Positions 25,951-64,000 of a DNA stretch of 64,000 bases are shown here, one piece after another; the first letter of the stretch is position 1, and the number at the start of each line of letters is the position of its first letter. Position numbers and translations under genes: made by a program. The stretch covers positions 10,164 through 74,163 of the forward strand of contig JBAZEY010000005.1 of the NCBI GenBank assembly GCA_041653675.1, read 5' to 3'. The DNA comes from Patescibacteria group bacterium. GTDB lineage: Bacteria > Patescibacteriota > Patescibacteriia > XYB2-FULL-38-15. The notes under the pieces are model-generated. The model saw only the letters and a program-made list of their open reading frames with translations. It searched no databases and was not told the DNA's origin.

Positions 25951-25956
25951 ATTCGA

Positions 25957-25970: not shown

Positions 25971-25989
25971 AAACTAACAAAAACCAAAC

Positions 25990-26016: not shown

Positions 26017-26042
26017 ATCTCTCAAAATTTTGAGACTAAATT

Positions 26043-26522: not shown

Positions 26523-26580
26523 TATTTCACCCCCTTCCAGAAGCCGCGGGGAAACCGCGACTCAAAAGATTAATTTTATT

Positions 26581-26594
26581 TATTATAACACATT
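26581..26594 (-). promoter_or_regulatory. pilA promoter: extended -10 TGTGTTATAAT, then a GC hairpin and GGAAGGGGGTGA RBS
   Basis: The minus strand reads TTTTAAATGTGTTATAATAAATAAAATT...GTCGCGGtttccCCGCGGC...GGAAGGGGGTGAAATAATG. Confidence 0.55.
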
Positions 26595-27679: not shown

Positions 27680-27741
27680 AATTTTTCATCTATCACAACT
27701 GGGTAAAAACACAGAGTGTATTCAATATTTCTTAAATAAAA

Positions 27742-28302
27742 TCATCCTTCATCTTCAAATTTAACAACATTTTTTCCCCGCCGCTGGTTTTCTGATTCAA
27801 GTGTTTTAAGCATGCCGAATAAATCTGAGGAGTGTTTAATTTTGTTGAATGTGCCCTCATCTACGAAAAATACTTGCACACCATTTTCTATCATCGCCTC
27901 AAGAGCCGAAGGGACTTCAGTTTTTTCAACCGGAGCAACCGGCTTTTTACTAACCCACTCGTCCTCGCCCATGCCTTTGTGCGGGTCAAAAGAAAAACTG
28001 TCGCTATTAAATTTATAAATTGAACCGCCCTTGTCACACTTTAAAAAACGTTCTTTATCTTTGATTACTACATAAGGAATATCATTTATCTTTCCAATTA
28101 GAGACCATCTATCATCTGTTTCGCTAACTAAAAATGCTGTGGCAAGCGCTAAATCGGGAGTAGCGAAAATTACAGGCCCTTCTTTTGGATCACGGGTGCT
28201 TTTTGCCCGAGGTTCAAATTTCTTAATGTCCCTATTTGATGAAGCATGATATAAAAATGGCGGTTTTTTCTTTTCGGGAGAAAAATGTTGTTCACCTTCC
28301 AT
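27742..28302 (-). CDS. Hypothetical protein embedded between pilB and pilC
   Basis: 186 aa, soluble, no motif I recognise (…PPFLYHASSNRDIKKFEPR…). Co-oriented and tightly spaced within the pilus operon. Confidence 0.4.
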   Translation of the reverse strand: MEGEQHFSPEKKKPPFLYHASSNRDIKKFEPRAKSTRDPKEGPVIFATPDLALATAFLVSETDDRWSLIGKINDIPYVVIKDKERFLKCDKGGSIYKFNSDSFSFDPHKGMGEDEWVSKKPVAPVEKTEVPSALEAMIENGVQVFFVDEGTFNKIKHSSDLFGMLKTLESENQRRGKNVVKFEDEG

Positions 28303-28347
28303 AAAAATAAATTTTATTTGAACGAACTTTCGTCAAATACTGTACCG

Positions 28348-30081: not shown

Positions 30082-30082
30082 A

Positions 30083-30325
30083 TTAAAACTTCATAAAAGG
30101 ATCAATTTTTCCTTTTTGGCCAACTTCAATTGGCAATGTGATATTTTGTTTTAGATCGTTAAATTTTTCTTCAGAAAAAATTTTGGTATCAAAACTAGTA
30201 TCGATAGTTTTTCCGGCGCTCAAAACACTTTCCGTCTCGCCGATTATTAGCATGCTATACAAAAAATATCCGCCTCCGGCAATAATGAACAATATAACTA
30301 TTAAAATAAGTGCTCTCTTTTTCAT
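30083..30325 (-). CDS. Small single-TM protein in the pilus operon
   Basis: 80 aa. MKKRALILIVILFIIAGGGYFLY... Confidence 0.4.
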   Translation of the reverse strand: MKKRALILIVILFIIAGGGYFLYSMLIIGETESVLSAGKTIDTSFDTKIFSEEKFNDLKQNITLPIEVGQKGKIDPFMKF

Positions 30326-30336
30326 AAAATTAATTT

Positions 30337-30966
30337 TTAAAAACTAACCGCCGCAGAACTGCTTTGTGCCGGCACCACCCGATAAGTTTTTAAATTTAAA
30401 GTATAAGAAGTTGTTTCTGGCGTATAATTTATCGATATTAGGTCTATCAATCTTAAATTTTCTTCCAGGTCGGCTAAAAAATTTTTAAAATCTCCGTATG
30501 CATTTTCCGAATCAGGGCTCGCAGTTAAATTCAAAGAAACCTGGACTTCACTGACCCCTAAATTTTTTAAATCCCCCGCCGCTTCTTTTTCACTTATATC
30601 AACTGCCAAAACAATAATTTTGTTTTTTTGAGCCAAGGATTCAAACAAGGAAAATAACCCCGCCTCATCAACTTCACTGGGCAGCATCGTTTCTATTTTT
30701 TCCCTTTTTTCAGAAGAAATATCAGCGTAATTTTCTAATAATTTATTTGTGCCGCGAAAAAAATTAGACTCATCTTCCAATGCCTTCTTTTGCGAAATAA
30801 TTTTTTCTTGAGCGTCAACTAATCGGCCATATTCCGGCCAAACTAAAATATATCCCGCAACCGCGAAAATTACTATCAATAAAATTAAGAGCAACGACGA
30901 AGATGTTTTTTTCTTCATCTCCGGCTCTTCCTTTGGTTTGGGCTTTGTTTCTTCTACCTTCGCCAT
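30337..30966 (-). CDS. PilO-like pilus assembly protein (N-terminal TM plus coiled-coil plus periplasmic domain)
   Basis: Architecture and position between the PilN-like gene and pilB. 209 aa. Confidence 0.45.
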   Translation of the reverse strand: MAKVEETKPKPKEEPEMKKKTSSSLLLILLIVIFAVAGYILVWPEYGRLVDAQEKIISQKKALEDESNFFRGTNKLLENYADISSEKREKIETMLPSEVDEAGLFSLFESLAQKNKIIVLAVDISEKEAAGDLKNLGVSEVQVSLNLTASPDSENAYGDFKNFLADLEENLRLIDLISINYTPETTSYTLNLKTYRVVPAQSSSAAVSF

Positions 30967-30984
30967 AACTATTTTATTCTACAA

Positions 30985-32016
30985 TTATTTCAAAAAAATT
31001 TCCGAACTAAGCTGCAGTTTCGCATCAAAATTAACCTCCACCACGTTCCCCTCGGTATCAACGCTTGCCGAGGCAGACATAATAGAAACTTTAGAAACTC
31101 GGTCGTCGGCCCGGAAGGAAACGATCTGTCTTGCCATTGCTCTATAACTTTTCGCCACGCCCGACAGAACAACCTGTCCATCGCTTCCTCCAATTAAATT
31201 AACAAAATAAACATCTGCCACGGTATTTTTTTCCAAAAAGGAGAAAAAGTTTGTCCAATAAATATGGCTTCCTAAAAGTTTATCCGCTGTTTTTAATTTT
31301 TTTTGAAAAAATTGCGCCTGATCTTTTTCCAGGGCTAGTTCCCTATTTTTTTTATCCATCACTTCCAAATCTGCTTCAACTTTTTGTAAAACTAACTCTG
31401 TTTTATTTTCATACCATTTCAATGCCAAATATGCTCCCACTCCGATAAATGCCAAAATAACTGCCACGACGACAAGGAGAATTATCTGCCTTGATTTTCC
31501 CCTTTTTTCTTTTACGGCTACTTCCTCCACTGGAATTAAAGTAATATCAGTTTTTTTATCAGTGGAAATTTTTTCCCCGGACGGCTTTGATAAATTTGTC
31601 TTTGGGGCGGAGTTTTGCGGCCGCTTCATTTCAATTTTCTGCGGCGGTCTTTGTTCTATAATTGGTCTTGGTGGAGGCAAAATTGGTTTTAGCGGGAGCG
31701 GCGGAGAAAACCGAGTTGGCGGAGGGGGAGAAACCGGAGCAGCTTTTGGAACCTCTTTTTGCATCTTAAAAACAGAAAGGTCTGATTCTTCAGCCTGACC
31801 TGTTTGTTTTGGCGGAGGAGAAATTGGCTTTAGTGTTTGTTTTGAACTAAAAAATTTCCCCATGAAAGTTGATTTTTGGGGCTTCTCCTCCGTTTCGGGA
31901 ACGAATAATTTTACTTCTGGCCGCTCTTCCTTTTTTCTTTTTTCTTCCGGCCTCTGAAGTTCTAGAGGCAGCAACTCAATATCATCGTTCCCGTTGTTTT
32001 TGTTGCCGTTTGGCAT
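30985..32016 (-). CDS. PilN-like pilus assembly protein with Pro-rich N-terminal region
   Basis: Single TM (IILLVVVAVILAFIGVGAYLAL) followed by a PilN-like domain. Lies immediately downstream of pilM. Confidence 0.45.
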   Translation of the reverse strand: MPNGNKNNGNDDIELLPLELQRPEEKRKKEERPEVKLFVPETEEKPQKSTFMGKFFSSKQTLKPISPPPKQTGQAEESDLSVFKMQKEVPKAAPVSPPPPTRFSPPLPLKPILPPPRPIIEQRPPQKIEMKRPQNSAPKTNLSKPSGEKISTDKKTDITLIPVEEVAVKEKRGKSRQIILLVVVAVILAFIGVGAYLALKWYENKTELVLQKVEADLEVMDKKNRELALEKDQAQFFQKKLKTADKLLGSHIYWTNFFSFLEKNTVADVYFVNLIGGSDGQVVLSGVAKSYRAMARQIVSFRADDRVSKVSIMSASASVDTEGNVVEVNFDAKLQLSSEIFLK

Positions 32017-32068
32017 AACTTCAAAAATACCAGCGCAAAAACTAAGTATTTAATTTTTTATCTTTAAT

Positions 32069-33121
32069 TTATTCTAATTCACGCATTGCGAGTCCTATCG
32101 CCACGGAAAATTTTGGTCCGACTTGGTCTAAAATGGGACGTAATTCTTCGGGATAAATTATTCTCGCCCAAGGATTTCCAGCATAAACTCTCATACTAAG
32201 CGCGCCCGAAAGATATTCAACAAAATTCGGAAGAAGCGCTCCCCCGCCGGTCAAAATAACTTTTTCAATTTTTTTGCCCGACCCACCCTCTTGATTTTGA
32301 TAAATATTCGCGCAATATTTAATTTCATTCAAAAGCATCGAGAGTGCTCTTTCTACGATTTTAGAAACCCCTCCGCCCGCGCCCGGCGACATTCCAGCGT
32401 CGTATTTCATCTGCTCAGCCTGATTAAAATCAATTCCAAGGCTCGCGGCAATTTCTTTAGTAATATTTATTCCACCGACATTTAAAGAACGATTTAAAAA
32501 TGGAACTCCATTTTCAATAATAGAAATCGCAGTGCTCGCCGCGCCCATATCCACTACAATTACCGTAGATTTATCAACGCCCACCAGCGCGCGGACCAAA
32601 GCAAAAGTTTCCGTTTCCAAACTCACAAGATTCAACCCGGCGCCTTTAAAAATATCCAAATATTTTTTGACCAAATTTTTAGCCGCCGCAGTAAGAAGAA
32701 CTCTTGTCGTTTTTTGTGGCACAGCGGGCGTTACGGCGCCGACTGCAGCTTCGGCAGTCAAAACCTTCCAGTCTAAAATCATCTCTTCTAAGGGCAAAGG
32801 GATAATTTTTTTCGCCTCCCACCGCACTGCTTCAGCTAAATCTTTTCCCGGCGCGGATGGAATGTTTATTACTGAACTAAAAACCGACGCGGAAGGCAAT
32901 GCCGCTACTGCTTGTTTTGAAACCGTTCTCGCCTTAGCACAAATTTTTTTAATCAAATCAATTGACCGTTCCGGGGTTTCCGTAAATTCTTTCTCTGGAT
33001 AACCAACACTTTGTTCCGTGTAACCGTAAGTCAAAAGCCTCGCCCTCCCGGCTTCTTCTTTTAATTCTACAATTTTGATGCTCGTCGCGCCCAAATCAAC
33101 GCCCAAAAAACTTTTGGTCAT
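32069..33121 (-). CDS. pilM: Type IV pilus assembly protein PilM (actin-like ATPase fold)
   Basis: MTKSFLGVDLGATSIKIVELKEEAGRARLL... plus the downstream ...ILTGGGALLPN... match PilM/FtsA-like motifs. 350 aa. Confidence 0.8.
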   Translation of the reverse strand: MTKSFLGVDLGATSIKIVELKEEAGRARLLTYGYTEQSVGYPEKEFTETPERSIDLIKKICAKARTVSKQAVAALPSASVFSSVINIPSAPGKDLAEAVRWEAKKIIPLPLEEMILDWKVLTAEAAVGAVTPAVPQKTTRVLLTAAAKNLVKKYLDIFKGAGLNLVSLETETFALVRALVGVDKSTVIVVDMGAASTAISIIENGVPFLNRSLNVGGINITKEIAASLGIDFNQAEQMKYDAGMSPGAGGGVSKIVERALSMLLNEIKYCANIYQNQEGGSGKKIEKVILTGGGALLPNFVEYLSGALSMRVYAGNPWARIIYPEELRPILDQVGPKFSVAIGLAMRELE

Positions 33122-37353: not shown

Positions 37354-37380
37354 TAAAACAAAAACACCGCCAGAAGGCGG
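37354..37380 (-). terminator. Intrinsic terminator CCGCC-AGAA-GGCGG followed by TGTTTTTGTTTT on the minus strand, terminating the island 3 transcript
   Basis: Read directly. Confidence 0.6.
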
Positions 37381-37589
37381 AGTTCTTGTGTGGGATTTAA
37401 AGATAGTCAAAAATGACTAAAATTTTGTTTTTGTTATTAATCCCTTTTCTCTAAACCATTTCGCTGATTTAGAGGAAAGGGACTTGGAGCAAGATCCTGT
37501 CACGCCTCGATTTCTCGATTTGTGAACAGTGTCTGCATTGCACAGACTACTTGCTCCAAGAAAATGTTGGAAGGAACGAACTGGCAGAA

Positions 37590-38522
37590 CTAGCGCTTCT
37601 TGCCGCCGCCGTTCGAGCCCTTCTGGCCGCCCTTGTGGCGCTTGCCGGCACCGAAGCGCGTGTTGCCCACGGCCAGGGCGAGTTTCCGGCGACGGTCCCA
37701 ACGCCGCGCTTCCCGCTCGGCGCGGCTGAGCTGCGGCTTCACCTCGGTCGCGACCGCCGGCTTCTTCGGCTCGGGCTGCTTCGGGGGCGAAACGACCTGG
37801 TCCGCGTCCTTCTTGTTCCGCCGCTCGATCTCCATCTGGGCGCCGCGGTAGTCGAAGAGTTGGATGCTCCTCAACGCCCCGGCCTTGATCAGGACGGCGT
37901 ACTGCTCGCGACAGATCCCGGCGACCGCGCGCTTGCCGTCCTTGTCCTTCACGATCGCGTAGCGCGTTACGAACTCGTCGTCGCGGTGGAGTAGGCAGTT
38001 CGGCACGCCGCAAACCACCCTACCCTTCTCGTCCCGGAGCGCCTGGAGCGGCTCGGCCGTGCCGACCACGACCGCCTTCCAGTAGTCCACGGCGGCGGCC
38101 TCGGCGCGGATCGCGGCGTTCCTCACGCCGACGATCCCGTAGAGCGCCCCGATCTTCATCAGGTGGCGGCGCTCTTCGGGCGACATCCGCCCCTCGGCGC
38201 AGGGGTTGCAGATCGGCTCGAAGCCCCAGAGCTTCAGACCGTCCCGCTCGATCTGGACGAGGAGAGCGAGCTTGATCTTGCCGACGGAGTTCCCGTCGGC
38301 GTGCCCGCACTTCGAGCAGACCCGCTTCGGCTTCGGCGCTTCGGTCACGACGATCGGGTCGTCGACCGGCTTCTCCGGCTCGACCGCGACCGGCTCCGCC
38401 ACCTCCGTCGTCATGGACGGCATGGCGGCGAGGACCATCTCTTCGTACTCTTCATCGGTCAGGTTCCCGAGGCCCGCCGACACCGGCACCACGATTCCCA
38501 TCGTCGTCTCCGCCATGTTCAT
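37590..38522 (-). CDS. Hypothetical zinc-finger protein with basic C-terminal tail (GC island 3), 310 aa
   Basis: AAGGAGA RBS 1-2 nt before the ATG (MNMAETTMG...). CSKCGH...CNPC and CGVPNC motifs. C-terminal ...RRWDRRRKLALAVGNTRFGAGKRHKGGQKGSNGGGKKR. ~65-70% GC by eye. Confidence 0.5.
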   Translation of the reverse strand: MNMAETTMGIVVPVSAGLGNLTDEEYEEMVLAAMPSMTTEVAEPVAVEPEKPVDDPIVVTEAPKPKRVCSKCGHADGNSVGKIKLALLVQIERDGLKLWGFEPICNPCAEGRMSPEERRHLMKIGALYGIVGVRNAAIRAEAAAVDYWKAVVVGTAEPLQALRDEKGRVVCGVPNCLLHRDDEFVTRYAIVKDKDGKRAVAGICREQYAVLIKAGALRSIQLFDYRGAQMEIERRNKKDADQVVSPPKQPEPKKPAVATEVKPQLSRAEREARRWDRRRKLALAVGNTRFGAGKRHKGGQKGSNGGGKKR

Positions 38523-38547
38523 TCTCCTTATTCTCTTGGCAGTTACG

Positions 38548-38572
38548 AAAAATCAGACCGGAAACCGATCTG
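38548..38572 (-). terminator. Attenuator-like hairpin CAGATCGG-TTT-CCGGTCTG followed by T5, ~25 nt upstream of the island 3 RBS
   Basis: Read directly on the minus strand. An intrinsic-terminator shape placed inside the 5' leader. Confidence 0.4.
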
Positions 38573-38853
38573 ACCTTGGCTTCCCGAAACTGTCGGGATG
38601 TGCCAGAGGAATTTGGAGGCGAGTTGGCCTGTTCTGATAGCACAGAACTGGCCGGTGGCATTTTGGTCAATTTACTTTTAGTAATCCAAGGCGGACAACC
38701 GAAAGTTAATTGAACCTCATGCCGGATCCCGCGGTCACCAATTAATGGTCCGCGAAGATTTTCCTCCTCCAAGTTTCTCTGGCACTATTTTGTAAGGAAC
38801 TAGCACGACAAGCACTTTTTTTAATCTTTAAGCCTATTTCAGCTTAACAAATA

Positions 38854-38882
38854 AGTATAACATATATTCCGTATTTTGTCAA
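38854..38882 (-). promoter_or_regulatory. Promoter TTGACA-N17-TATACT with TG extension, driving the island 3 gene through a ~320-nt leader
   Basis: The minus strand reads CCCCTTGACAaaatacggaatatatgtTATACTtatttg. Confidence 0.45.
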
Positions 38883-44419: not shown

Positions 44420-45421
44420 TTATTTCCCTATTAATTTTGTGGCCGTTGTCCAAGCTAAAAGCGGCTCTTGGGCTCCGATGCCGGTCAAATTATACGCGCT
44501 GTTTAAGGCGGCGAGTTTCGCGGCTTTCAAAACATTTCCGCAATAGCGAATATAGCCGGCAAGAAAACTTGAACAAAATGCGTCTCCCGCGCCGGTCGTG
44601 TCCACAACTCTTTTGCTTAAAGAAGCTTGATGATAAATTTTTCCGCGAAGATAAATGTACGCGCCTTTCGCGCCGTCAGTAATTACTAAAATTCCCAGAC
44701 AAAATTCCGCCAAAACTCCAAAAAGATTTTTGGGCTGATTTAGCCACGCCGTGCCAGCTTTTTTATATTTTGGCAGAGACATAACAAGTTCAATCGCTTC
44801 ATCTTTATTTACAAAAAATATCGCCGTCTTTGCCATGTATTTTTTTAAACCAAAAAGACCCGTCGCGAGCTGTTTATTTCCTGGATTCCAAGCCAGCCGC
44901 GTTTCTTTTTTCGCAACCACAGAATCCAACACGCTTCGCCATCCTTCACCCGAAAGCGACGCGACATAAAACCAATCCGTTTTAAATTTCAAATCGCGCG
45001 CCGCAAGTCTTAAATTATTATTCGCTCCGCGAAATAAAAATGCCGTATGCTCAACTTCCGGACCAAAAGTTACAATAAAAGAAAAACCTGTCTTTAGAGC
45101 CGGATCAGTTTGAATAAATTTTATGTCAATTTTATTTTTTACTAAATTCGCGATGACCGCCCGACCGTCTTCGTCTTTTCCAACTCGCGCGATTGTTGCG
45201 GTCTTTAAACCTAAACGCGCTAAAGCCACGGCCGCGTTCGCCGCTCCGCCGCCAAAAGTTTGAAATGATTTTTCAATATTAATTTTCGCGCCGTATTCAA
45301 ATCCCAAAAGTTTCTGCCGCAACGGATCTTTCATTTGGGCAACTAATTTTCCTTCTTTAGTATAAAAAGTTATATCCCGCGCCGCTCCGCCAATCGTCAC
45401 GACGTCAAAATTTTTTGCCAT
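44420..45421 (-). CDS. PfkB-family carbohydrate/nucleoside kinase
   Basis: N-terminal VVTIGGAARD and C-terminal VVDTTGAGDAF motifs. 333 aa. Confidence 0.75.
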   Translation of the reverse strand: MAKNFDVVTIGGAARDITFYTKEGKLVAQMKDPLRQKLLGFEYGAKINIEKSFQTFGGGAANAAVALARLGLKTATIARVGKDEDGRAVIANLVKNKIDIKFIQTDPALKTGFSFIVTFGPEVEHTAFLFRGANNNLRLAARDLKFKTDWFYVASLSGEGWRSVLDSVVAKKETRLAWNPGNKQLATGLFGLKKYMAKTAIFFVNKDEAIELVMSLPKYKKAGTAWLNQPKNLFGVLAEFCLGILVITDGAKGAYIYLRGKIYHQASLSKRVVDTTGAGDAFCSSFLAGYIRYCGNVLKAAKLAALNSAYNLTGIGAQEPLLAWTTATKLIGK

Positions 45422-45423
45422 AG

Positions 45424-45720
45424 TTATCTTTTTAATTTCTTTAATTGCGTAATCAATTTGTCTTTTGCCAAATCAATTGCCTCAACAATCGTGTGATCGT
45501 CTTCACTTACGAGAAAACTTTGTTTTGGCAATTTTAAATCAAAAGTAATTTTGTAAGCGCTTTTGCTGGCAAACTTTTCTGCCTTAATCCGGAGCGAGAC
45601 TGAATCTTCCGCCTGCCGGTGAATTAATTTCTCCAATTGCGGAATTTTTGTCTCCACATATTCTTCGCACCATTTCTTTTCATTCGGAGTTAAATTTTTG
45701 AAAAAATAATCAATTTGCAT
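45424..45720 (-). CDS. hpf: Ribosome hibernation promoting factor / RaiA family
   Basis: 98 aa. ...VSLRIKAEKFASKSAYKITFDLKLP... matches the YfiA/HPF fold. Confidence 0.75.
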   Translation of the reverse strand: MQIDYFFKNLTPNEKKWCEEYVETKIPQLEKLIHRQAEDSVSLRIKAEKFASKSAYKITFDLKLPKQSFLVSEDDHTIVEAIDLAKDKLITQLKKLKR

Positions 45721-45746
45721 ATGTAAAAAATTAATGATTAATTGTT

Positions 45747-45762
45747 AAATTATAACATAAAA
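45747..45762 (-). promoter_or_regulatory. Extended -10 (TATGTTATAAT) promoter for hpf
   Basis: The minus strand reads TTTTATGTTATAATTTAAC, ~30 nt upstream of the ATG. Confidence 0.35.
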
Positions 45763-45787
45763 CTAAGAGAAAGCGAAACCGTTTCTA

Positions 45788-45837
45788 TTGACAAGTTACT
45801 AAATATATTCTATTATTAAAAGTCCACAATTTTGTGG
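45788..45837 (+). promoter_or_regulatory. Island 4 cassette 1 promoter TTGACA-N17-TATTAT plus operator-like palindrome CCACAA-tt-TTGTGG (45824-45837)
   Basis: TTGACAagttactaaatatattcTATTATtaaaagtCCACAATTTTGTGG read directly. Followed by AGGAGA RBS and an ATG at 45862. Confidence 0.55.
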
Positions 45838-45861
45838 GATGGGATAGAGGAGAAAGAGTCC

Positions 45862-46194
45862 ATGAAACTCAAGCCGACCGTCTTAGAATTGCAGGTGTTG
45901 GAGCTGACTGAGTACATGAGACTCAAGCCGACCAACATCACCTTGGGCGCGGGTTGCGTGATCGGTTTCTACCGGAACGAACGTTGCATCGTGGTTATGC
46001 CCGAATCGGGCAGCGGAGTTCGGATCGACTGGCCGGGCACAAACGACGACAAGCGGATCGCGCCTCCGTGCATCAAGACGGAGAAGGATTTTCTCGACGT
46101 CGTCAATCTCTTCGCCGCGATGCTCGGTCTCCAGGCCGTCCCCGACAGCTTCGAGCGGCCGTACGGGATCGCCCTTCGCCTCGTCAAGCGGTAG
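45862..46194 (+). CDS. Hypothetical protein (GC island 4, cassette 1), ~110 aa, with duplicated N-terminal MKLKPT/MRLKPT
   Basis: RBS GAGGAGAaagagtccATG. 21-nt repeat ATGAAACTCAAGCCGACC / ATGAGACTCAAGCCGACC in frame 54 nt apart. GC-rich. No domain recognised. Confidence 0.45.
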   Translation: MKLKPTVLELQVLELTEYMRLKPTNITLGAGCVIGFYRNERCIVVMPESGSGVRIDWPGTNDDKRIAPPCIKTEKDFLDVVNLFAAMLGLQAVPDSFERPYGIALRLVKR

Positions 46195-46240
46195 CGGACA
46201 GAACAAGTCGTAAAACGGTTTGCAAACATGCGAACTGACC

Positions 46241-46268
46241 GAGAGCCTTCGACAAGCTCTCTTTTTTA
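46241..46268 (+). terminator. Terminator GAGAGC-CTTCGACAA-GCTCTC followed by T6. Identical copy at 46890-46919.
   Basis: Read directly. Preceded by the shared 15-mer AACAAGTCGTAAAAC. Confidence 0.65.
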
Positions 46269-46281
46269 TTTAAAGCCGATC

Positions 46282-46331
46282 TTGACAATTTGCTAAATAT
46301 CTGATATTATTCAATGTCACAATTTCGTGAC
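46282..46331 (+). promoter_or_regulatory. Island 4 cassette 2 promoter TTGACA-N17-TATTAT plus operator-like palindrome GTCAC-aatttc-GTGAC (46316-46331)
   Basis: TTGACAatttgctaaatatctgaTATTATtcaatGTCACAATTTCGTGAC read directly. Near-identical in layout to 45788-45837. Confidence 0.55.
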
Positions 46332-46869
46332 TAGAAAGAAGGAGGCCGTGCGCTACTTGTTCATTCCGAGTTGCGAAGTGGCGATGAAGAATGTGCTGAC
46401 TGGCACGACTACCGAAAAGCGCCTCATCCGCGGCCTCGATCTTTGGCGGGCAGGCGGCTACGACGCCATCATCGTGACGGGCGGCATCTATTTGCCGCCA
46501 GAACAACAGACGATCCCCTCGGGAATCTTGATGGAATACTGGCTCATCGAGCACGGTGTGCCAGAGAAGGCCATCATCTGCGAAGATCACTCACGCGATA
46601 CCTTCGAAAACATTTCTGGCGCCCTGACACTCATCGCCGACGACCCCGCGCCAGAATTCACGGTCGTGACCCACTGGCAGCACGCGCTGCGGTTCTGGGT
46701 AACCTTCCACCTCGCGCACCGGCGCAAGATTCGCCTCGTGCCGATGTGGTACTGGACCGATCTCAAGGGTTTTGTGTTGGAGTGGGCATTCCTGCTCGTA
46801 CATCTTCTCGATCGAAACGGAACCGGCCGGATCGCCACTCGGAACCGCGACAGTCACAACAAGTCGTAA
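46327..46869 (+). CDS. DUF218 (YdcF/ElyC/SanA-like) domain protein (GC island 4, cassette 2). True start probably downstream of the AAGGAGG at 46339-46345 (TTG 46356 or ATG 46384).
   Basis: DUF218 hallmarks ...YDAIIVTGGI... and ...CEDHSRDTFEN... GC-rich. The coordinates given are the track ORF. Confidence 0.5.
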   Translation: MTRKKEAVRYLFIPSCEVAMKNVLTGTTTEKRLIRGLDLWRAGGYDAIIVTGGIYLPPEQQTIPSGILMEYWLIEHGVPEKAIICEDHSRDTFENISGALTLIADDPAPEFTVVTHWQHALRFWVTFHLAHRRKIRLVPMWYWTDLKGFVLEWAFLLVHLLDRNGTGRIATRNRDSHNKS

Positions 46870-46889
46870 AACAATTCGGCCACGGCCGG

Positions 46890-46919
46890 ATAGAGCCTTC
46901 GACAAGCTCTCTTTTTTTA
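46890..46919 (+). terminator. Second copy of the AGAGCCTTCGACAAGCTCTC plus T7 terminator
   Basis: 19/19 identity of the stem-loop with 46241-46261. Confidence 0.65.
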
Positions 46920-47519
46920 TTTTAATTTTTTAAAAAAATCATCTATCGGAGGCTTAAAATATTCTTTGAATAACGGATCAATAAATTTATATTTTTCTCC
47001 CCTCTTTTGCATTTTGTATTTTTTCGGCCCGACTATGTCGGCCATAATTGAATCAACGATTCTTTCTTTTTCATTTTGATTTATTTTGTATTTTTGAATA
47101 TATGACTCAATCGCGAGGTGGACAATCTCGTGCAAAAGTGTGTTCAGCGGCGACACCGCGTTTATATTAAGAATGATTTTGTCTGGCGGAACATAAGATC
47201 CACCGACTCCGTATTTCGTGAGAATTAATTGATAACTTTTTCTTATTTTTTTACCGCATATTTTTCCTAGTCGGCCGTAGAAATCTTTTTCTATTTTTGA
47301 AAAATTTTTCTTGGCCGCGTCCGCGGCTTTTTTATAATCTCTTTCTTTGTATTCTTTTCTGAGTGCGGTGTATATTTTTTCCAAACTATCAATTTTTGGA
47401 TTAATATTTTTTGGAAAACAGGGAATATATCCAAATTTTTTATACCAGGAAAATTTTTTTACGGCACTTTGAATCCGTTGTTTCTCCGTATTAATGTTGT
47501 ATTTTATCTCTAGCGGCAT
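46917..47519 (-). CDS. Hypothetical protein with HExxH motif (possible metallopeptidase-like)
   Basis: ...NTLLHEIVHLAIESY... 200 aa, K-rich. No confident family. Confidence 0.35.
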   Translation of the reverse strand: MPLEIKYNINTEKQRIQSAVKKFSWYKKFGYIPCFPKNINPKIDSLEKIYTALRKEYKERDYKKAADAAKKNFSKIEKDFYGRLGKICGKKIRKSYQLILTKYGVGGSYVPPDKIILNINAVSPLNTLLHEIVHLAIESYIQKYKINQNEKERIVDSIMADIVGPKKYKMQKRGEKYKFIDPLFKEYFKPPIDDFFKKLK

Positions 47520-47527
47520 GCTATTTT

Positions 47528-48094
47528 TTATCTAAATTTAATCGGCACAATTAGCGAATCGGCGTGTTCCGGAAGGCCGGAGGGATTGTCTTTTTCCAAA
47601 ACTAAAGTACCGGTCGCTGTCGTCGGCGCGGCAAATTCCAAAGTTGCTTTGAATGGCACAAAATTTTCTGTCATCCATTCGCCTTGCGCTTGGGCCGGAA
47701 TAGCAGCAAGTTGCACGCCATTTGCGTCAAAAAGTTTGACCGGAAAACTGGCTTCAAAATACCAAGTGCCGCGTGCCTCGCCGGTAATTTCTAATGGGCT
47801 CGTGATAATTGCATTCGGTCGCGGCGCGTCAATCCTGATTAAATCTGTTTTTTCTAATTCATTTCCAATGTATTCTACAAAATTTTTGTCGCCTGCCCGG
47901 CATTGGCGCGGATAAGATTCCATAACCGGATTTCCGGCGGCAACGCATTCTTCAAAGTTTGTGACTGTGATAACTGGCGTATTTTGATTTTCATTTCCAA
48001 CCGGCGGAGTTGTTTTATAAAAATTGTAGTAATAAAATACTCCGCCCAAAAGTAGAATGAGAACGATTAATAAAAGCGCGATTCTTGTTTTCAT
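47528..48094 (-). CDS. Secreted protein with N-terminal TM/signal and Ig-like (Gmad2-type?) domain
   Basis: MKTRIALLLIVLILLLGGVFYYY... then a beta-rich domain. The family guess is weak. Confidence 0.35.
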   Translation of the reverse strand: MKTRIALLLIVLILLLGGVFYYYNFYKTTPPVGNENQNTPVITVTNFEECVAAGNPVMESYPRQCRAGDKNFVEYIGNELEKTDLIRIDAPRPNAIITSPLEITGEARGTWYFEASFPVKLFDANGVQLAAIPAQAQGEWMTENFVPFKATLEFAAPTTATGTLVLEKDNPSGLPEHADSLIVPIKFR

Positions 48095-48100
48095 AGTTTT

Positions 48101-48319
48101 TTAAATTATTTCTAAAACCTTTTGTCGTGAAGTAAATCCAGAGACAATTCTAACGCGCGACGGCGCGATTTTAAAATATTCAGCGACAGCTTTAATAATC
48201 GCTTGATTTGCCAAACCCTTAACTGGCGGCGCGGTAACTGAAACATTAAAATTGTTTTCGCGAACGCGCTCCACCAAATCCTCATGCGCTCTCGGTTTTG
48301 CATTTATAAAAATTTTCAT
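48101..48319 (-). CDS. DUF167 (YggU) family protein
   Basis: 72 aa. MKIFINAKPRA...VSVTAPPVKGLANQAIIKAVAEYFKIAPSRVRIVSG... Confidence 0.65.
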   Translation of the reverse strand: MKIFINAKPRAHEDLVERVRENNFNVSVTAPPVKGLANQAIIKAVAEYFKIAPSRVRIVSGFTSRQKVLEII

Positions 48320-49033
48320 TTAATTTTTTGCCGAGGCGGCGAGATAACTCGCGACAATCGCCGCGGTCTCGGCCCGCAAGGTTAATTTTCCTAAACTTAC
48401 AATCTGAAAATTTTTCTCTTGAACTAATTTAACTTCTTCCTCATCCCAGCCGCCTTCCGGACCAATCCAAATTCCCACTCGCCGACCGACATCAACTGTT
48501 AATTTTCTTTGTTCAAACTTTGGCGCGTGAATTTCAAAAAATAAATTGGAATCATTTTCTTCGGCGTGATGAATTGCTTCACTAAATTTTAAAATCTTTC
48601 CCACGACTGGCAAAATTCCACGGCCAGACTGTTCAGCCGCTTCACGGACAATTTTTTCCAACCGGTCCGTCCGTAAATTTGTTTTTATGGTTTTCGCGGT
48701 TATAACCGGAATAATTTCCGCCACTCCGGCTTCTACTGCTTTTTCTGCCACAAATTCAAAATTTTCTTTTTTTAAAATTGCCGCGTAAAGAATTGGTTTC
48801 ATTTCCGGCTCGGCGACATTTGCTTCCACTTTTAAAATATTTACTCCCACGCTTTGTTTTCCAAAACTCATAATTTCCGCGCGAGCCTCTCTCCCCTTTC
48901 CGTCACCCAAAATTATTTCTTCGCCCGCCCGAAGCCGCAAAACATTTTTTATTTGGTTATAAATTTCTTTATTGGCAATTGATGATATTTTTTTATCAAA
49001 ATCAAAATTACCGATAAATCTGTGCACTTTCAT
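48320..49033 (-). CDS. rsmE: 16S rRNA (uracil1498-N3)-methyltransferase
   Basis: N-terminal PUA-like region followed by a SPOUT domain. Length and profile fit RsmE. 237 aa. Confidence 0.75.
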   Translation of the reverse strand: MKVHRFIGNFDFDKKISSIANKEIYNQIKNVLRLRAGEEIILGDGKGREARAEIMSFGKQSVGVNILKVEANVAEPEMKPILYAAILKKENFEFVAEKAVEAGVAEIIPVITAKTIKTNLRTDRLEKIVREAAEQSGRGILPVVGKILKFSEAIHHAEENDSNLFFEIHAPKFEQRKLTVDVGRRVGIWIGPEGGWDEEEVKLVQEKNFQIVSLGKLTLRAETAAIVASYLAASAKN

Positions 49034-56532: not shown

Positions 56533-59199
56533 TTATAATGACCTTTCCCCCACCATTGGCCCGGCAACTCCCTCTGGCACGCCGAGCTGCGTTCTCTCGG
56601 AAATTTCCGCTTCCACGATACTTTTATCGCGGCCGTATTTTAATCTGGCAAGTTGTTTCAAGGCTTGGGCTAATTCCGCGTCACCTTTTTGCGGCGCAAG
56701 AGTTTGCATATTAAACGCTTTGGAAGCCGCGTTATCAATTAAAAGTTTAATGTAGGCTGTGTATTTTTCCACATTCAACAAATCGTATTCGTTAACGGTC
56801 GGCGCGAATTCTTTGGCAATTGTTTCCACGTCATCCACGCCAATTCTGAAAGATATCATCGTCCCGGCATTGCCGAAAACCGCGTCGCGAATTTTTGTGT
56901 CATTATTTTTTACCAACTGCCCGACATACTGATGGGCAATCGTAAGGCACAGCCGATATTTTCGAGCTTCAGATAAAATTGTGGCGATGCTGTCGGTAAT
57001 AAAATTTTGGAACTCATCAATATAAAGATAAAAATCATGGCGCTCGGCTTCGGGCAATTCGGCCCGGCTCATCGCAGCCATCTGAAGTTTTGAAACAATA
57101 ATCAAGCCCAAAAGTTCGCTGTTCACTTCACCGGTTTTGCCTTTTGCCAGATTCACAAGCAAAATTTTCTTCTTATCCATTATTTCCCTAAAATCAAAAC
57201 CTGAACGGGATTGTCCAATAATATTTCTTATCATTTCGTTTTCCACAAATCGGCCGACTTTGGAAATCAAGTAACCCAACATTTCTGATTTATGAAAATC
57301 CGAAGTCTTGGCCATTTCTTTTTCCCAAAAAGAGCGGACAACCGGATCTTTGACTTTCGCCACCCAAGATTTTTGAAATTCATTATCGGAAAACATTCTT
57401 GGAATTTCCGCGATTGTGCCGGGATTTGCCAAATCCGACATCAAAGTCAACATCACATTTCTCATGTTATGCTCAAACATCGGACCGATCATTTCTGGCG
57501 GGAAAAGTTTATAAAAAATAGCGATCATTTCCTGGACGGCAAAATCTTTTTGCGATTCATCTTTGGCCTCAAGCATATTTAGACCAATCGGCCGGTCCGC
57601 GTCTGACGGATCAAAAATAATTACGTCGTCCAACCGTTCTTTCGGTATGCCAGTCAAAATTTCTTCAATCAAATCGCCGTGCGGATCAACTACGGCTACG
57701 CCTTCGCCATTAGCAATATCCTGCTTAACCATATTGGCAAGCAAGACAGATTTACCAACGCCGGATTTACCAATGACATAAACATGGCGGCGGCGGTCTT
57801 CTCTTTTAATTTTAACCATTACTTCCGTTCCGCGGAAAGTGGATTTCCCAAGCGTCACTCCTTCTTTTGGCATATTAATCGGCGGCGCGGCTTTTTTTGC
57901 CAAAAGCCACTGGATATTGGGCGCTTCGGTCCAGGGCGAAGGAAAATGAAAGAGACTTGCCATTTCTTCCGAGTTCAAAACAACTTTTTTCTTTTCATGA
58001 AAACCTCTATGGATAAAATCTCTAATCAATTTTTTCAAATGACGGCCGCCCGGTGCCGTACGCGCGAAACTATTTCCGTATTGATAAATATTATACTGGG
58101 AAAAAGCGTTCGAAATATTATCCAAATTCATTTTTGCCCGCGCGCTATTTGGTGATGATGAGATGATTCTAACATTGACATCAACTCCAGCCTTACTCGC
58201 CTTTTCTTCAAGACCCTTTACCATTTCCTCTTCCATCGGCGAAAGACGATAAATTTCCGGTTGAGGCTTTAATTGATCTTCTGGTTTCTTTTTCGTTCCG
58301 CCGGCAAACATTTTTCCCAATTCTCCCAATATTTTCATGAAGATATTTCCGCTAACCGATGACATTGCTTCGCCAAGCTTCTTTCCTTGTTGCATTTCCT
58401 GGGCAATTTTTATGCCTGGCCGGCGCCATTCTTTACGCGCTGAGCGTATTACAAATTGAATAGCCGCGCCTTCATTTTTTTCCAACTTTGAGAGGACGTT
58501 TGTCAGACCGTTCATCGGGTCTGTCTCCATTTTTTTATAAGTTTTTATCGGGAAAAAATGCGGGCGCTTGAAAGTTAAATAAGCGCCGCGGATATCTCCG
58601 GTCGGCGTAAAAATATTATAATCTTTGATTTCTTCAATAAAAGCCTCGTGATAATTCGCTCTGATTTGCTGTTCAATATATTCCTGCAAATATTTTGGCA
58701 CGGCTACATAAAAAGAAATTAACCCTTTGTCGGCGATAATTTCAAAAGAAAGATAATCTGTCCGTCCGGTAAGCCAGGCGCCAATTCCTTTTTGCGCTTT
58801 TAATCCGCCAATCGACGCGAAAAGAGCTTCGGCCGTGGCAACACCCTCTTGAATAGTTTGGACGGTAATCTCTCTTTTTTCCTGAGCTTGGGCCCTTTCC
58901 GCTGATTCTTTGGGAACCGTAACGAGCAAAACTATATTTTTAAAAGAGGTGGACATCTTTGTCCGATGATGCAAAAATTTTCTAAGCAGAGAAATTAAAA
59001 ACCACGATCCTAAAAAAATCGCGGCAAGCGTAAAAATCATTATGCCAATCGGACTCTCCGCAAAACTTCCGACTTCTTCAGGAATTTCCGGAGTCGGCAG
59101 GGTAATTTGATAAAAGGAAAAAACGAAAAGCGCGGCGAGCGCAGTGCTCGGTAGCCATCTTTTTATTTTATGCCAATTTTTTTTCTCTACATCCTCCAT
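56533..59199 (-). CDS. Fused membrane-anchored TraD/VirD4-like coupling-protein-type ATPase (888 aa). N-half resembles 14646-16073 and C-half resembles 12474-14639.
   Basis: Two N-terminal TM segments. Walker A HVYVIGKSGVGKSV, VVDPHGDL, FYLYIDEFQNF. Linker ...APPINMPKEGVTLGKSTFRG... is continuous where the other locus is split. Confidence 0.6.
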   Translation of the reverse strand: MEDVEKKNWHKIKRWLPSTALAALFVFSFYQITLPTPEIPEEVGSFAESPIGIMIFTLAAIFLGSWFLISLLRKFLHHRTKMSTSFKNIVLLVTVPKESAERAQAQEKREITVQTIQEGVATAEALFASIGGLKAQKGIGAWLTGRTDYLSFEIIADKGLISFYVAVPKYLQEYIEQQIRANYHEAFIEEIKDYNIFTPTGDIRGAYLTFKRPHFFPIKTYKKMETDPMNGLTNVLSKLEKNEGAAIQFVIRSARKEWRRPGIKIAQEMQQGKKLGEAMSSVSGNIFMKILGELGKMFAGGTKKKPEDQLKPQPEIYRLSPMEEEMVKGLEEKASKAGVDVNVRIISSSPNSARAKMNLDNISNAFSQYNIYQYGNSFARTAPGGRHLKKLIRDFIHRGFHEKKKVVLNSEEMASLFHFPSPWTEAPNIQWLLAKKAAPPINMPKEGVTLGKSTFRGTEVMVKIKREDRRRHVYVIGKSGVGKSVLLANMVKQDIANGEGVAVVDPHGDLIEEILTGIPKERLDDVIIFDPSDADRPIGLNMLEAKDESQKDFAVQEMIAIFYKLFPPEMIGPMFEHNMRNVMLTLMSDLANPGTIAEIPRMFSDNEFQKSWVAKVKDPVVRSFWEKEMAKTSDFHKSEMLGYLISKVGRFVENEMIRNIIGQSRSGFDFREIMDKKKILLVNLAKGKTGEVNSELLGLIIVSKLQMAAMSRAELPEAERHDFYLYIDEFQNFITDSIATILSEARKYRLCLTIAHQYVGQLVKNNDTKIRDAVFGNAGTMISFRIGVDDVETIAKEFAPTVNEYDLLNVEKYTAYIKLLIDNAASKAFNMQTLAPQKGDAELAQALKQLARLKYGRDKSIVEAEISERTQLGVPEGVAGPMVGERSL

Positions 59200-62232: not shown

Positions 62233-64000
62233 TTAGTTTGCCCGCAATCCAGTGTCGGAAAAAGTTCCGGCCCCGCCACAAAAAGCTTTTGCTTCACCGC
62301 CGCCGTAGTCAGCAATCAACCTTCCTTCGTTCGCCGCGCCGTCATTACACCTATAAACAATAAATACCCCGGCGCCAGCGGGACAATTTGTTCCATCTTG
62401 TAAACAAACATTCTTCCCGGAAACTGTAGCGTTGCCGACTACCGTCAATGAACCAGACACTTGCAGTTCATCATTCACATAAACGTAATTAGCCGGATAA
62501 TCAATATCTGCCCGGAGAGTAAGGTTCCCCGCGTTAACGCCCGGAATAGAAGAATCCGTGGACAGAAGCCCCGTTGTACCATCGTGTCTTAAAACTACTG
62601 CCTTTGTATTGCTTACATCGCTCGTCTGCAGGGTACCGCCTCCGTAAGCATTGACGCTGCTTCCACTTACTTGTCCATCACTAAAAAATGAACTGCTGGA
62701 ATAGAACCTTCCCATCATATCTTCCCATTTTATATATTTTGTCCCATCATCAAAATAAATATAATCATCATTTCCCGCCGCAGCCACTCCAACATTTAAA
62801 TTTCCACCGACCGTAAGCGCATCCGCAGCTTTATCAAAAGTTAAACCAGCATCACCCGTAAAAATTCCGCCGTCGTTAAACTGAATCTGTCCTGCCACGC
62901 CCCCGGGCGTAACTCCCGCCGGCCACGCGCCAAGACAATTTCCTTGAATACAAAGTTTCACGACATTTAATGTTCCAGCTCCTCGATATCCACCCGCTGC
63001 CGCGCCCACGACTTCAGCCTCAGCATAAACTCCTTTCCCGCCCAAAAAATATCCGCCCCAACCATCAGCCGCGCCAGCTTCTCCATAAACCGCCGTACTG
63101 CCCGCGCCAGATGCCTGAAAAAATCCGCCATAACTTGCCCCGTTGCCCTTGACTCCGACCCCCAAAGCGCCAGCTGCCGTAAAATAACCGCCATAATTTG
63201 CCACTGCTCCATTTGATGTCGCTTCACCATAAACGCCCATCACACTACCAGCACCAGACGCCTCACCGTAAACGCCACGGGCAAAATTAGTCGCGCTTAA
63301 AGTTTTTCCGTGAACGCCGTAATTAATTCCCGCGACGGCCGTCGCTTCGCCATAAATTCCTTTACCGTTGCCCGCCGAACTGGATCCCTGAATCGCCGGC
63401 GTTAAATTTGTATTCGCGTTTATTTGGCCAGCCACGTCAAGCTTGTAGGTTGGAATTATTGTGCCAATGCCTACGCTTCCGTCGCTTGTTACAATCAACC
63501 TGTTTGTTTCTCCCACTCCAGCTTTCCAAAAACGCAACTGATCAGTTCCCGTATCGCGGTAAATCGCCCAGTGCGTATCCATTGCCGGACTGCCAAAATC
63601 CAATTCTGGATTGCTGCCAGGCGTTGGGAGAAGATAAATTCTTGGCGCTACGCCACCAACCATTAAATTGAAGGCTGTATTTGTTGTCCCAATTCCCACA
63701 TTGCCGGCGGCGCCAATCATTATCCGACCAACTCCGTTTGTTTCAAAAGACATGGGTACATTATCATTGGTTCCTAAAACCGCGGTCGGACCAAAGCCAA
63801 TATTTCCTTCATCAACAAAAGCACTCACCGCTTCGGGCCAATTATTGCGACAATTTCCTTGAATACAAAGTTGCTCGGCATTCAATGTTCCCACACCCAT
63901 ATTTCCTCCGGCTGGCACGCCGACAATCTGCCCTTGACCCACGGAAAAATTTCCGCCGATAGTTAAATCGCCGGTTTTAATTTGCGCCCCGGCGCCAACA
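62233..64000 (-). CDS. Large Gly/Ala/Val-rich repeat surface protein (beta-helix/fibre-like), 5' end beyond the window
   Basis: Repeats GVYGEA(T/S), two LCIQGNC(x)WP modules, many GxG tracts. The reading frame stays open upstream of the M at 63942 to the window edge. Confidence 0.45.
   Translation of the reverse strand, partial: VGAGAQIKTGDLTIGGNFSVGQGQIVGVPAGGNMGVGTLNAEQLCIQGNCRNNWPEAVSAFVDEGNIGFGPTAVLGTNDNVPMSFETNGVGRIMIGAAGNVGIGTTNTAFNLMVGGVAPRIYLLPTPGSNPELDFGSPAMDTHWAIYRDTGTDQLRFWKAGVGETNRLIVTSDGSVGIGTIIPTYKLDVAGQINANTNLTPAIQGSSSAGNGKGIYGEATAVAGINYGVHGKTLSATNFARGVYGEASGAGSVMGVYGEATSNGAVANYGGYFTAAGALGVGVKGNGASYGGFFQASGAGSTAVYGEAGAADGWGGYFLGGKGVYAEAEVVGAAAGGYRGAGTLNVVKLCIQGNCLGAWPAGVTPGGVAGQIQFNDGGIFTGDAGLTFDKAADALTVGGNLNVGVAAAGNDDYIYFDDGTKYIKWEDMMGRFYSSSSFFSDGQVSGSSVNAYGGGTLQTSDVSNTKAVVLRHDGTTGLLSTDSSIPGVNAGNLTLRADIDYPANYVYVNDELQVSGSLTVVGNATVSGKNVCLQDGTNCPAGAGVFIVYRCNDGAANEGRLIADYGGGEAKAFCGGAGTFSDTGLRAN

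Follow-up and report, generated by a model that had tools for sequence, protein, structure and literature searches.

Two tandem, co-oriented gene cassettes lie between hpf and a Gmad2 gene in a 64,000-nucleotide stretch of contig JBAZEY010000005.1 from a Patescibacteria group bacterium (this whole stretch is hereafter called the window). Each unit consists of a promoter-leader block, a GC-rich open reading frame (ORF) and a structured 3' block; the first encodes a 110-aa protein, ORF1, and the second a DUF218/YdcF-like protein (Table 1). The genes of the window are otherwise housekeeping, nearly all on the minus strand, and include a ribosomal protein operon, rpoA, alaS, cysS, ligA, lepA, recJ, queA, mnmA and type IV pilus genes; the cassettes themselves have hpf, pfkB, ackA, rsmE and trmH as neighbors. 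An earlier note, made from the sequence alone, had described twin cassettes with the same order of parts, and every element it listed was found again when positions 45400-47300 were read: an AGGAG-type ribosome-binding site (RBS) in both units, a palindrome behind each promoter (12-nt cores 92% identical), a duplicated start in ORF1, and a shared 15-mer followed by an identical hairpin and T6-7. Among the details that needed correction, the stem of the second hairpin copy begins TAGAGC and spans 5 bp rather than 6, and the background that was put at ~38% GC is a window mean of about 41-42%.

Table 1. Features of the cassette locus and of other GC-rich units, in window coordinates.
Feature	Position	Strand	Description
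Left edge of variable slot (hpf-to-cassette intergenic region)	45721-45787		Ends GCGAAAC (45773-45779); kept in relatives
Two tandem units	45788-46268 and 46282-46919	+	Promoter-leader, ORF and 3' block each
Putative promoter 1	45788-45816	+	TTGACA-N17-TATTAT; 11/12 consensus positions; homologous to promoters of 10 sister cassettes
Leader 1	45822-45837	+	GTCCACAATTT, at about +1 of predicted transcript; contains palindrome CCACAATTTTGTGG (45824-45837)
Shine-Dalgarno 1	45847-45852	+	GAGGAG in the sequence, 9 nt upstream of ATG
Tandem duplication of RBS and start	45847-45879 and 45901-45933	+	54-nt duplication; copies 82% identical
ORF1	45862-46194	+	110 aa; GC3 0.82; alternative start ATG 45916
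3' module 1	46202-46268	+	15-mer AACAAGTCGTAAAAC (46202-46216), hairpin 1 (46216-46237), GACCGA, hairpin 2 GAGAGC/CTTCGACAA/GCTCTC (46241-46261), T6
Putative promoter 2	46282-46310	+	TTGACA-N17-TATTAT, TG before it; 11/12 consensus positions
Leader 2 / palindrome	46316-46331	+	GTCACAATTTCGTGAC; identical in DUF218 cassettes of L007 and L009; loop differs in L020
Shine-Dalgarno 2	46340-46345	+	AGGAGG in the sequence
DUF218/YdcF-like ORF	46348-46869	+	173 aa from GTG 46348 or 170 aa from TTG 46357; GC3 0.75
3' module 2	46858-46919	+	15-mer (46858-46872), hairpin 1 variant AATTCGGCCACGGCCGGAT (46874-46891), hairpin 2 (46892-46910), T7
Terminator block, both copies	46242-46267 and 46892-46917	+	AGAGCCTTCGACAAGCTCTCTTTTTT, 26 nt, 100% identical
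HExxH protein gene	46917-47519	-	200 aa; GC 0.32; no Pfam family; stop codon overlaps T-run of cassette 2
Cassette A	1805-2425	+	Exact TTGACA-N17-TATTAT, structured leader, 152-aa acidic Cys-rich ORF, GC3 0.86, no family match; 3' end with a strong double hairpin, z = -5.4; insertion flanked by queA and a polysaccharide flippase gene
Cassette B	10870-11850	-	276-aa ORF, GC3 0.74, own RBS, strong terminator; between mnmA and queH
Gene C unit	37360-38870 (ORF 37590-38522)	-	310 aa, GC 0.68, GC3 0.94; putative promoter TTGACA-N17-TATACT at ~38860

Both ORFs stand out from their surroundings in composition, as the earlier note had claimed in calling them foreign. ORF1 has a GC content of 0.59 and the DUF218 ORF of 0.58, vs 0.32-0.44 in neighboring genes and 0.32-0.34 in the flanking genes; their GC content at third codon positions (GC3) lies well above the 0.28-0.50 of host genes (0.32-0.39 in the same neighboring genes) and the ~0.38 of the genome. 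The modules around the ORFs follow a different course, with GC contents of 0.21-0.33 on the 5' side and 0.46-0.48 on the 3' side. Immediately downstream lies an AT-rich gene for a 200-aa HExxH protein that is missing from every related locus, where right-flank similarity begins at Gmad2; the conserved core restarts at the Gmad2 gene, position 47528. Because of this absence from all relatives, we read the HExxH gene as part of the same variable islet, which would extend from ~45780 to ~47520.

The 5' parts of the two cassettes are closely similar. Their promoters are the best two sigma-70-type matches in a 4-kb scan (44500-48500), and a repeat finder paired the promoter-leader blocks at 81% identity over 37 nt. 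Within the window, TTGACA-N17-TATTAT occurs five times with at most one mismatch, vs 0.38 expected, and each of its three exact matches (1805, 45788 and 46282) stands ahead of a GC-rich ORF. Among the cassettes of related genomes described below, the 5' modules can be aligned from -35 to about +20 in 11 cassettes from six ORF families, with TTGACAA, the -10 hexamer and G(T)-CACAA invariant; cassettes of the families called X and PQ-loop carry other promoter-leader types. An own TTGACA-type promoter is present in 19 of the 19 cassettes tabulated, and the sole exception seen is a small transmembrane (TM) ORF at one related locus (L009).

On the 3' side, the repeat finder paired the 18-mer CA(G/C)AACAAGTCGTAAAAC at 94% identity between the units, and the 26-nt terminator block is present in two copies in the window with up to three mismatches allowed, vs 0.00 expected. 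In cassette 2 the 15-mer also encodes the final codons and the stop (AAC AAG TCG TAA, ..N K S *). The 3' blocks fold with z = -2.4 (module 1) and z = -2.0 (module 2), and two hairpins form in all 14 occupied variants that were folded, despite differing hairpin-1 sequences: hairpin 1 comes in at least six sequence variants and always has a 6-9-bp stem with a loop of ~4 nt. The 10-mer GTCGTAAAAC, which was not in the search pattern, is invariant in all 18 aligned 3' modules, from at least 12 genomes. Hairpin 1 is followed by GACCGA or a short variant, then by hairpin 2 with its 9-nt loop CTTCGACAA and T6-7; this loop is fixed save for one G-to-A variant (L022). On paper, GTCG in the 10-mer could pair with CGAC in the loop of hairpin 2 to form a pseudoknot; this idea was set aside, as both are invariant and so give no covariation, and the L022 loop variant is uncompensated. 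No Rfam family matched the modules at gathering score or at a relaxed E-value.

These parts do not appear to be a local house style. Terminator, 10-mer and palindrome are confined to the slot in the 64 kb, on which ground that explanation was rejected for the window, and the check for genome-wide recurrence suggested in the earlier note, covered here within the window and ~230 kb of related DNA, gave the same answer. A covariance model of the 3' module searched against the ~230 kb matched only in the hpf slot and at one other locus (L008), with no match at the window's other GC-rich genes or at distant DUF218 loci. Dispersal of the terminator in the manner of repetitive extragenic palindromic elements or miniature inverted-repeat transposable elements (MITEs) was likewise not seen, with two copies in the 64 kb.

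To place the locus among its relatives, an exact-match scan with the terminator sequence GAGCCTTCGACAAGCTCTCTTTT was made and returned four loci from a genome collection and eight from a metagenome collection; 11 of the 12 are the same site beside a divergently transcribed hpf in related Patescibacteria. Loci reached through protein homologues (L004 and L005 by ORF1, L006 and L007 by DUF218) show the same architecture, and in all, 16 loci from related environmental genomes bear variants of it. What they hold between the same edges differs from genome to genome. L011 and L021 are empty, with GACGAAAC joined directly to C(T)GACCGA, hairpin 2 and T7, and it is the empty L021 whose flanks are nearest to those of the window (91% and 87% nucleotide identity). 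L004 has an ORF1 orthologue only, and L010 and L018 have X only; L004, L010, L017 and L023 are single-cassette sites. Two cassettes are found in the window, in L007 (X, then DUF218), L019 (W, then a PQ-loop-like protein), L020 (DUF218, then Y), L022 (X, then a PQ-loop-like protein) and L024 (X', then V), and in L009 DUF218 is followed by the promoterless small TM ORF behind a truncated module. At least nine ORF families take part (ORF1, DUF218, X, Y, Z, W, V, the PQ-loop-like protein and the small TM protein); BLASTP shows no relationship between any of them, and all are GC-rich, with GC3 of 0.60-0.83. Unrelated ORFs have thus come to occupy the space between one leader and one 3' block, and the junctions fall on or beside the start and stop codons. 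The earlier picture of a cassette array with reused regulatory parts around foreign ORFs is borne out by this shared architecture with variable cargo, and, across about twenty related environmental genomes, the slot reads as a natural site where ready-to-express cassettes are gained, lost and swapped.

The modules themselves have been reassorted. The leader GTAGCGAAAGyTAC is common to Y in L017 and W in L019, and Y in L020 has another leader; a promoter spacer is common to ORF1 of the window and Y of L020. The hairpin-1 variant GGTTTGCAAACAyGCGAAC stands after ORF1 (window), DUF218 (L007) and Z (L023), and the variant AATTCGGCCACGGCCGrAT after DUF218 (window and L006), Z (L017) and V (L024), while both cassettes of L020 have identical 3' modules. 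The module-encoded ..KS* end (AAC AAG TCG TAA) is found in DUF218, Z and the PQ-loop protein; ORF1, X, Y and V stop earlier. At L008 a copy of the module lies at another locus, after clpP, where it closes a promoter-equipped GC-rich ORF, and another such ORF comes next. On the sequence comparison, this module mosaicism shows recombination at module boundaries.

Several related loci hold further structures at or near the slot. Between the X and DUF218 cassettes of L007 (2005-2100), the beginning of the hpf coding sequence and the hpf-promoter intergenic region occur a second time, from which it would follow that the array was enlarged through duplication or recombination of a unit containing the left edge of the slot. 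L007 (1347-1432) and L020 (~3140-3225) have a MITE-like palindromic element, GTCATTGCGAGGATCCGCC...GCTCGCAAAGAC, in the interval from hpf to the promoter of the first cassette, and in L017 (~400-450) a variant of it is found at the opposite side of hpf. In L018 hpf and the X cassette are separated by a 208-aa ORF of ordinary composition (original coordinates 3138-3764) that is read in the same direction as hpf, which suggests that the slot also takes genes on the other strand.

We propose, with a probability of about 60%, that the two-cassette array occupies a natural insertion/replacement hotspot of a groundwater Patescibacteria clade, in the slot between hpf and Gmad2. Each cassette would be an autonomous, moron-like transcription unit, with a near-consensus sigma-70-type promoter, a leader GTC(C)ACAATTT from about +1, a strong Shine-Dalgarno sequence and a GC-rich ORF, and its transcript would end by way of GTCGTAAAAC, a stable variable hairpin, and then the short hairpin with the fixed 9-nt loop and a U-run. 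The 5' and 3' modules of both cassettes would descend from common modules that have recombined among cassettes and among related genomes, with crossovers at the leader and at the GTCGTAAAAC block, so that one ORF can be traded precisely for an unrelated one and arrays gain cassettes, lose them or are left empty. Once DNA has been taken up, the whole slot could be replaced by homologous recombination or gene conversion across the core genes on either side, with the short conserved modules serving as internal crossover points. Such replacement is plausible because type IV pilus genes are present in the window, and bacteria of the Candidate Phyla Radiation (CPR) carry competence genes. The pilus set (pilB, pilC, a prepilin peptidase, pilins and pilM) is found at 23293-33121 (-), and two TraG/TrwB-like coupling ATPases are found at 12474-14639 and 56533-59199 (-); these are DNA transfer or uptake machinery that could feed cassette exchange. 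No integrase, transposase or reverse transcriptase was found in the annotated relatives or among the ORFs of the window scanned with Pfam, which were all but a few short ones.

Several observations weigh against this proposal. The promoters, the transcription start and termination are consensus-level predictions. The 5' hairpins, taken as RNA, are no stabler than shuffled sequences (z = -0.55 and -0.63). Hairpin 2 is weak, with a 5-6-bp stem and a 9-nt loop, and a terminator scanner made no call; its invariance in the 12 exact-match loci is moreover given by construction, and cassettes lacking it would be missed by the scan, although its identity in the window, L004, L006 and L007 is independent of the search pattern. 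Homologous recombination alone explains neither the exact fit of non-homologous ORFs between leader and 3' block nor the abrupt change in GC content at start and stop codons. Finally, no GC-rich donor was found: homologues of ORF1, DUF218 and gene C occur, in the readable contexts, only on Patescibacteria-like contigs.

The age of the cargo bears directly on where its composition comes from. DUF218 orthologues occupy the same slot in four other genomes at 76-85% amino acid identity, vs 92-97% for HPF, and their distances at 4-fold degenerate sites (0.25-0.47) are comparable to those of hpf (0.42-0.81). The gene is therefore older than the split of these genomes, and the recent acquisition proposed in the earlier note is not borne out for DUF218. 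Its GC content at 4-fold sites is ~0.8, and 20 of the 23 variable columns involve A/T. More distant DUF218 homologues lie elsewhere, each as a one-gene GC-rich island that has a promoter of its own, and their GC3 is 0.69 in L012 (a genome of 40% GC), 0.49 in L016 and 0.745 in L014 (a genome of 54.5% GC). These values would fit a gene that arose in a lineage of higher GC content and has since been slowly ameliorated, which is what we infer for DUF218.

Other GC-rich units of the window (cassettes A and B and gene C; Table 1) broaden the question. The ORF of cassette B has no match in Pfam, PHROG or PADLOC. The protein of gene C has Zn-ribbon motifs and a basic tail, and its unit has untranslated regions (UTRs) of ~320 nt on the 5' side and ~230 nt on the 3' side, with long-range complementary stems; these UTRs gave no Rfam match at gathering score or at a relaxed E-value. 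Twelve homologues of gene C were collected, and the order lepA-C-recJ is kept in five genomes. Across these five, the protein is 47-67% identical vs 83-94% for the neighboring proteins, with a ratio of nonsynonymous to synonymous substitution (dN/dS) of ~0.7-0.85 vs 0.05-0.08, and GC3 is 0.91-0.94 in all five orthologues. Between 23% and 44% of 4-fold sites differ, mostly by G/C interchanges; in the shared 4-fold columns, the counts of which are small, 26 of 41 vary, 15 of those by G<->C only, and none is mostly A/T. Pairwise silent distances of gene C do not track those of neighboring host genes. A foreign gene in decay under the mutation pattern of the host would not leave such a picture; either alleles from an unsampled GC-rich pool have been imported repeatedly into one locus, or a fixation bias (biased gene conversion or selection) keeps the GC content high. 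A-to-G editing or retro-processing as a source of GC was rejected, the sense strand of gene C not being depleted in A relative to T.

The alternative that fares best is one in which GC richness is made or kept in place, through GC-biased gene conversion at a recombination hotspot or through mRNA or codon selection, and the cassettes are resident, fast-evolving genes. Gene C speaks for it, being syntenic and fast-evolving with GC3 nonetheless at 0.91-0.94 in five genomes and with silent distances decoupled from those of its neighbors, and so does the fact that the GC steps fall at the ends of the ORFs. An elevation of GC3 linked to recombination has been proposed for bacteria (PMC4450053). DUF218 behaves in the opposite way, as a gene under amelioration, by its 4-fold sites and by the lower GC3 of its distant homologues; the counts are small, and the AT-rich gene for the 200-aa protein sits in the same islet. 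The shift needed here, from 0.38 to 0.75-0.94, far exceeds the effects reportedly seen in bacteria. We regard GC enrichment in place as possible, on balance doubtful, and continue to prefer the hotspot with exchanged cassettes.

Somewhat less likely again is a site-specific, integron-like system in which the 3' element from GTCGTAAAAC to the hairpin-2 loop CTTCGACAA, perhaps together with the related AAAAGTCCACAA in the leader, is the recombination site of a recombinase encoded elsewhere. Such a system would account for the invariance of GTCGTAAAAC outside the search pattern while the adjoining hairpin varies freely, for the nearly fixed hairpin-2 loop, and for the ORF-precise junctions, which include in-frame ..KS* fusions in three unrelated proteins. 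The empty sites, with GACGAAAC + C(T)GACCGA vs ..GCGAACC/GACCGA in occupied ones, show that each end of a cassette bears a CGAA(A)C repeat of 6-7 nt; the single module copy after clpP in L008 and the promoterless ORF inserted behind a truncated module in L009 point the same way. However, no tyrosine or serine recombinase, transposase or HUH protein was found among the scanned ORFs of the 64 kb or in the flanking regions annotated in related genomes, and the element has neither an attC-like R''/L''-L'/R' architecture nor a GTTRRRY core. The single-cassette loci have one copy of hairpin 2 only, a misfit with Campbell-type integration there, the X and PQ-loop cassettes have different leaders, and the covariance model found no further copies in the ~230 kb of related DNA.

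Comparison with known systems helps to delimit what is being described. Integron arrays resemble the locus in having tandem, co-oriented small ORFs, mostly of unknown function, each with a conserved structured 3' element, in varying among close relatives in number, order and content, and in having empty sites. The attC consensus comprises R''/L''-L'/R' inverted repeats and a GTTRRRY core. Unlike integrons, the window array has no intI, no attI/attC architecture and no such core: an adjacent intI tyrosine recombinase was absent from the Pfam-scanned window ORFs and the annotated flanks of relatives, and the 3' module consists of GTCGTAAAAC, two independent hairpins and a T-run, with no GTT core after it. 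Nearly every cassette, moreover, has its own strong promoter instead of Pc, and the 3' element is terminator-like. Since integrase, transposase, reverse transcriptase and an attC-like site are all lacking within this scope, the locus is not an integron.

A closer likeness is to phage morons, which are defined by an own promoter and factor-independent terminator, a deviant GC content, and their presence as extra DNA relative to related genomes (PMC3594210). Like morons of the HK97/HK022 type, each cassette is a single gene between conserved neighbors with its own predicted promoter (11/12 consensus positions, the two best in 4 kb); the ORFs deviate in GC content, and the empty L011 and L021 identify the array as extra DNA. 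The candidate for an own terminator is hairpin 2 with its T6-7, which has a short stem and on which the scanner made no call. Residence in a phage or prophage is not what we find: the neighbors are housekeeping genes, and there was no match to PHROGs, phage records or viral contigs. Unlike morons, then, the cassettes lie between housekeeping genes (hpf, pfkB and Gmad2) of a cellular chromosome, and many unrelated ORFs reuse one promoter-leader and 3' block and are stacked in tandem at one slot. Flexible genomic islets share the fixed position between core genes and accessory genes that differ by strain, the AT-rich gene included, but they normally lack unrelated ORFs inside identical short regulatory modules and a uniform GC deviation of the cargo.

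No description of such cassettes in Patescibacteria was found in the literature. It is conceivable, if speculative and in our estimate unlikely, that the locus represents an undescribed Patescibacteria cassette system, with units that bring their own promoter and terminator, ORF-precise exchange at a dedicated slot through an invariant GTCGTAAAAC...CTTCGACAA hairpin element and no linked integrase, a clade-restricted cargo of fast-evolving small proteins, and a GC richness that is actively maintained by biased conversion or mRNA selection, as gene C suggests. The swapping mechanism and the maintenance of GC are the parts that could prove new in kind.

The palindromes offer a regulatory reading, put forward in the earlier note, in which both are operators for one dimeric repressor that co-regulates the cassettes. 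They lie 7 and 5 nt past the -10 hexamer, over the expected transcription start, in the classic position for an operator; their cores are nearly identical, and all 11 leaders of classes I and II have CACAA unchanged. Yet the dyad is not kept in sister cassettes: those of Y, W and V hold CCACAATTTC, with a degenerate right half-site (CGTAG, CATGG or CGTGG) and a different hairpin adjoining, so that the conserved portion is the left half GTC(C)ACAATTT, and the X and PQ-loop cassettes of the same arrays have unrelated leaders. The 12-nt core is no rarer than chance, with two found in the 64 kb vs 1.0 expected, and no helix-turn-helix or other repressor gene was found in the slot or among the Pfam-scanned ORFs of the window, although such a gene could lie at any other place in the genome. 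A shared palindrome-binding repressor is thus unsupported, and we consider it improbable. As RNA, the hairpin of leader 1 is weak (-6.4 to -8.7 kcal/mol), and neither the operator nor the 5'-terminal RNA stem-loop is well supported as a reading of the palindromes.

An engineered construct, vector contamination or an assembly chimera, which the earlier note had also considered and which the layout of consensus promoter, operator-like palindrome, RBS, ORF and reused terminator recalls in its resemblance to synthetic parts, can be given practically no weight. The locus, also present in an NCBI metagenome-assembled genome of a Patescibacteria group bacterium, recurs with both junctions and the same gene order on a separate 14.3-kb ENA contig (ERZ27247358). 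The exact ORF1 protein is found on a Logan contig of another run and the DUF218 protein on a third contig (SRR6484325, SRR18595300), and the ENA and Logan copies have 3' modules identical to those of the window. Plasmid and phage record collections gave no match, more than 12 environmental genomes have natural versions of the locus that differ in sequence, and the parts evolve, as the compensated hairpin variants and the DUF218 orthologues at 76-85% identity attest. These recoveries, in three independent assemblies and from different runs and studies, indicate that the two units are real and natural, not engineered or chimeric.

The genomes of Patescibacteria (CPR) are very small, these bacteria probably rely on host cells, and little is known of the way in which they obtain new genes and try them out. 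The locus would represent a plug-in architecture, with a fixed slot, reusable promoter-leader and terminator modules and interchangeable small ORFs, and it offers a defined set of candidate host-interaction or defense genes as well as native, portable expression parts for organisms without genetic tools. It is also a natural test case for the precise swapping of unrelated ORFs with no visible recombinase, and for what holds single genes at a GC3 of 0.75-0.94 in a genome with a GC3 of ~0.38. If it is true that the GC signal is maintained in place, this would amount to an unusually strong gene-scale compositional forcing in bacteria.

Of the two cassette proteins, the second is assigned with confidence to the family that the earlier note had named: it matches PF02698 over residues 26-140 with 66.1 bits, vs a cut-off of 27.6 (E = 4e-18). 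All 22 homologues collected have PF02698 and come, where named, from Patescibacteria/Parcubacteria-type records; within the DUF218/YdcF-SanA-ElyC family the protein belongs to a short, Patescibacteria-restricted subfamily. ORF1 has no Pfam match and seemed an orphan in a word-indexed search, whereas a full HMMER search against 1.84 billion representatives returned 19 proteins, small ones of 78-132 aa with the family motif WPxxDDKRxAPxCIxTxxDF apart from one probably spurious eukaryotic giant. Its first 18 codons derive from the tandem duplication, and these 18 residues are missing in an orthologue (P0002; 82-85% identical). An AlphaFold2 model built on the family alignment predicts an alpha/beta protein (predicted local distance difference test, pLDDT, 88.8; predicted template modeling score, pTM, 0.80) with no fold relative detected, so that ORF1 would represent a small uncharacterized family with a confidently predicted fold of no known relative. 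The giant (P0038) is a 5143-aa Phytophthora infestans protein in which residues 19-52 of ORF1 are matched in 16 stretches; repeats or low sequence complexity, and not common descent, probably account for this match. A sequence search of the PDB gave no relative of either protein. A phage or defense origin of the ORFs was rejected, as the cassette proteins had no match in PHROGs or PADLOC and no relatives of ORF1, DUF218 or gene C were found on viral contigs.

Two further observations concern the surroundings. The L009/L025 source (OZ246416.1, an 886-kb chromosome) and that of L008 (CAYZNO010000029.1) share the gene order of the window at 85-93% protein identity and are titled "uncultured Gammaproteobacteria"; this label is probably wrong for both. 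Near the right end of the window (62233-63942, -) a 569-aa protein, encoded at a GC content of 0.50 and a host-like GC3 of 0.40, has a weak, sub-threshold match to the second domain of Mtd, the tropism determinant of a diversity-generating retroelement, and may be a variable surface protein.

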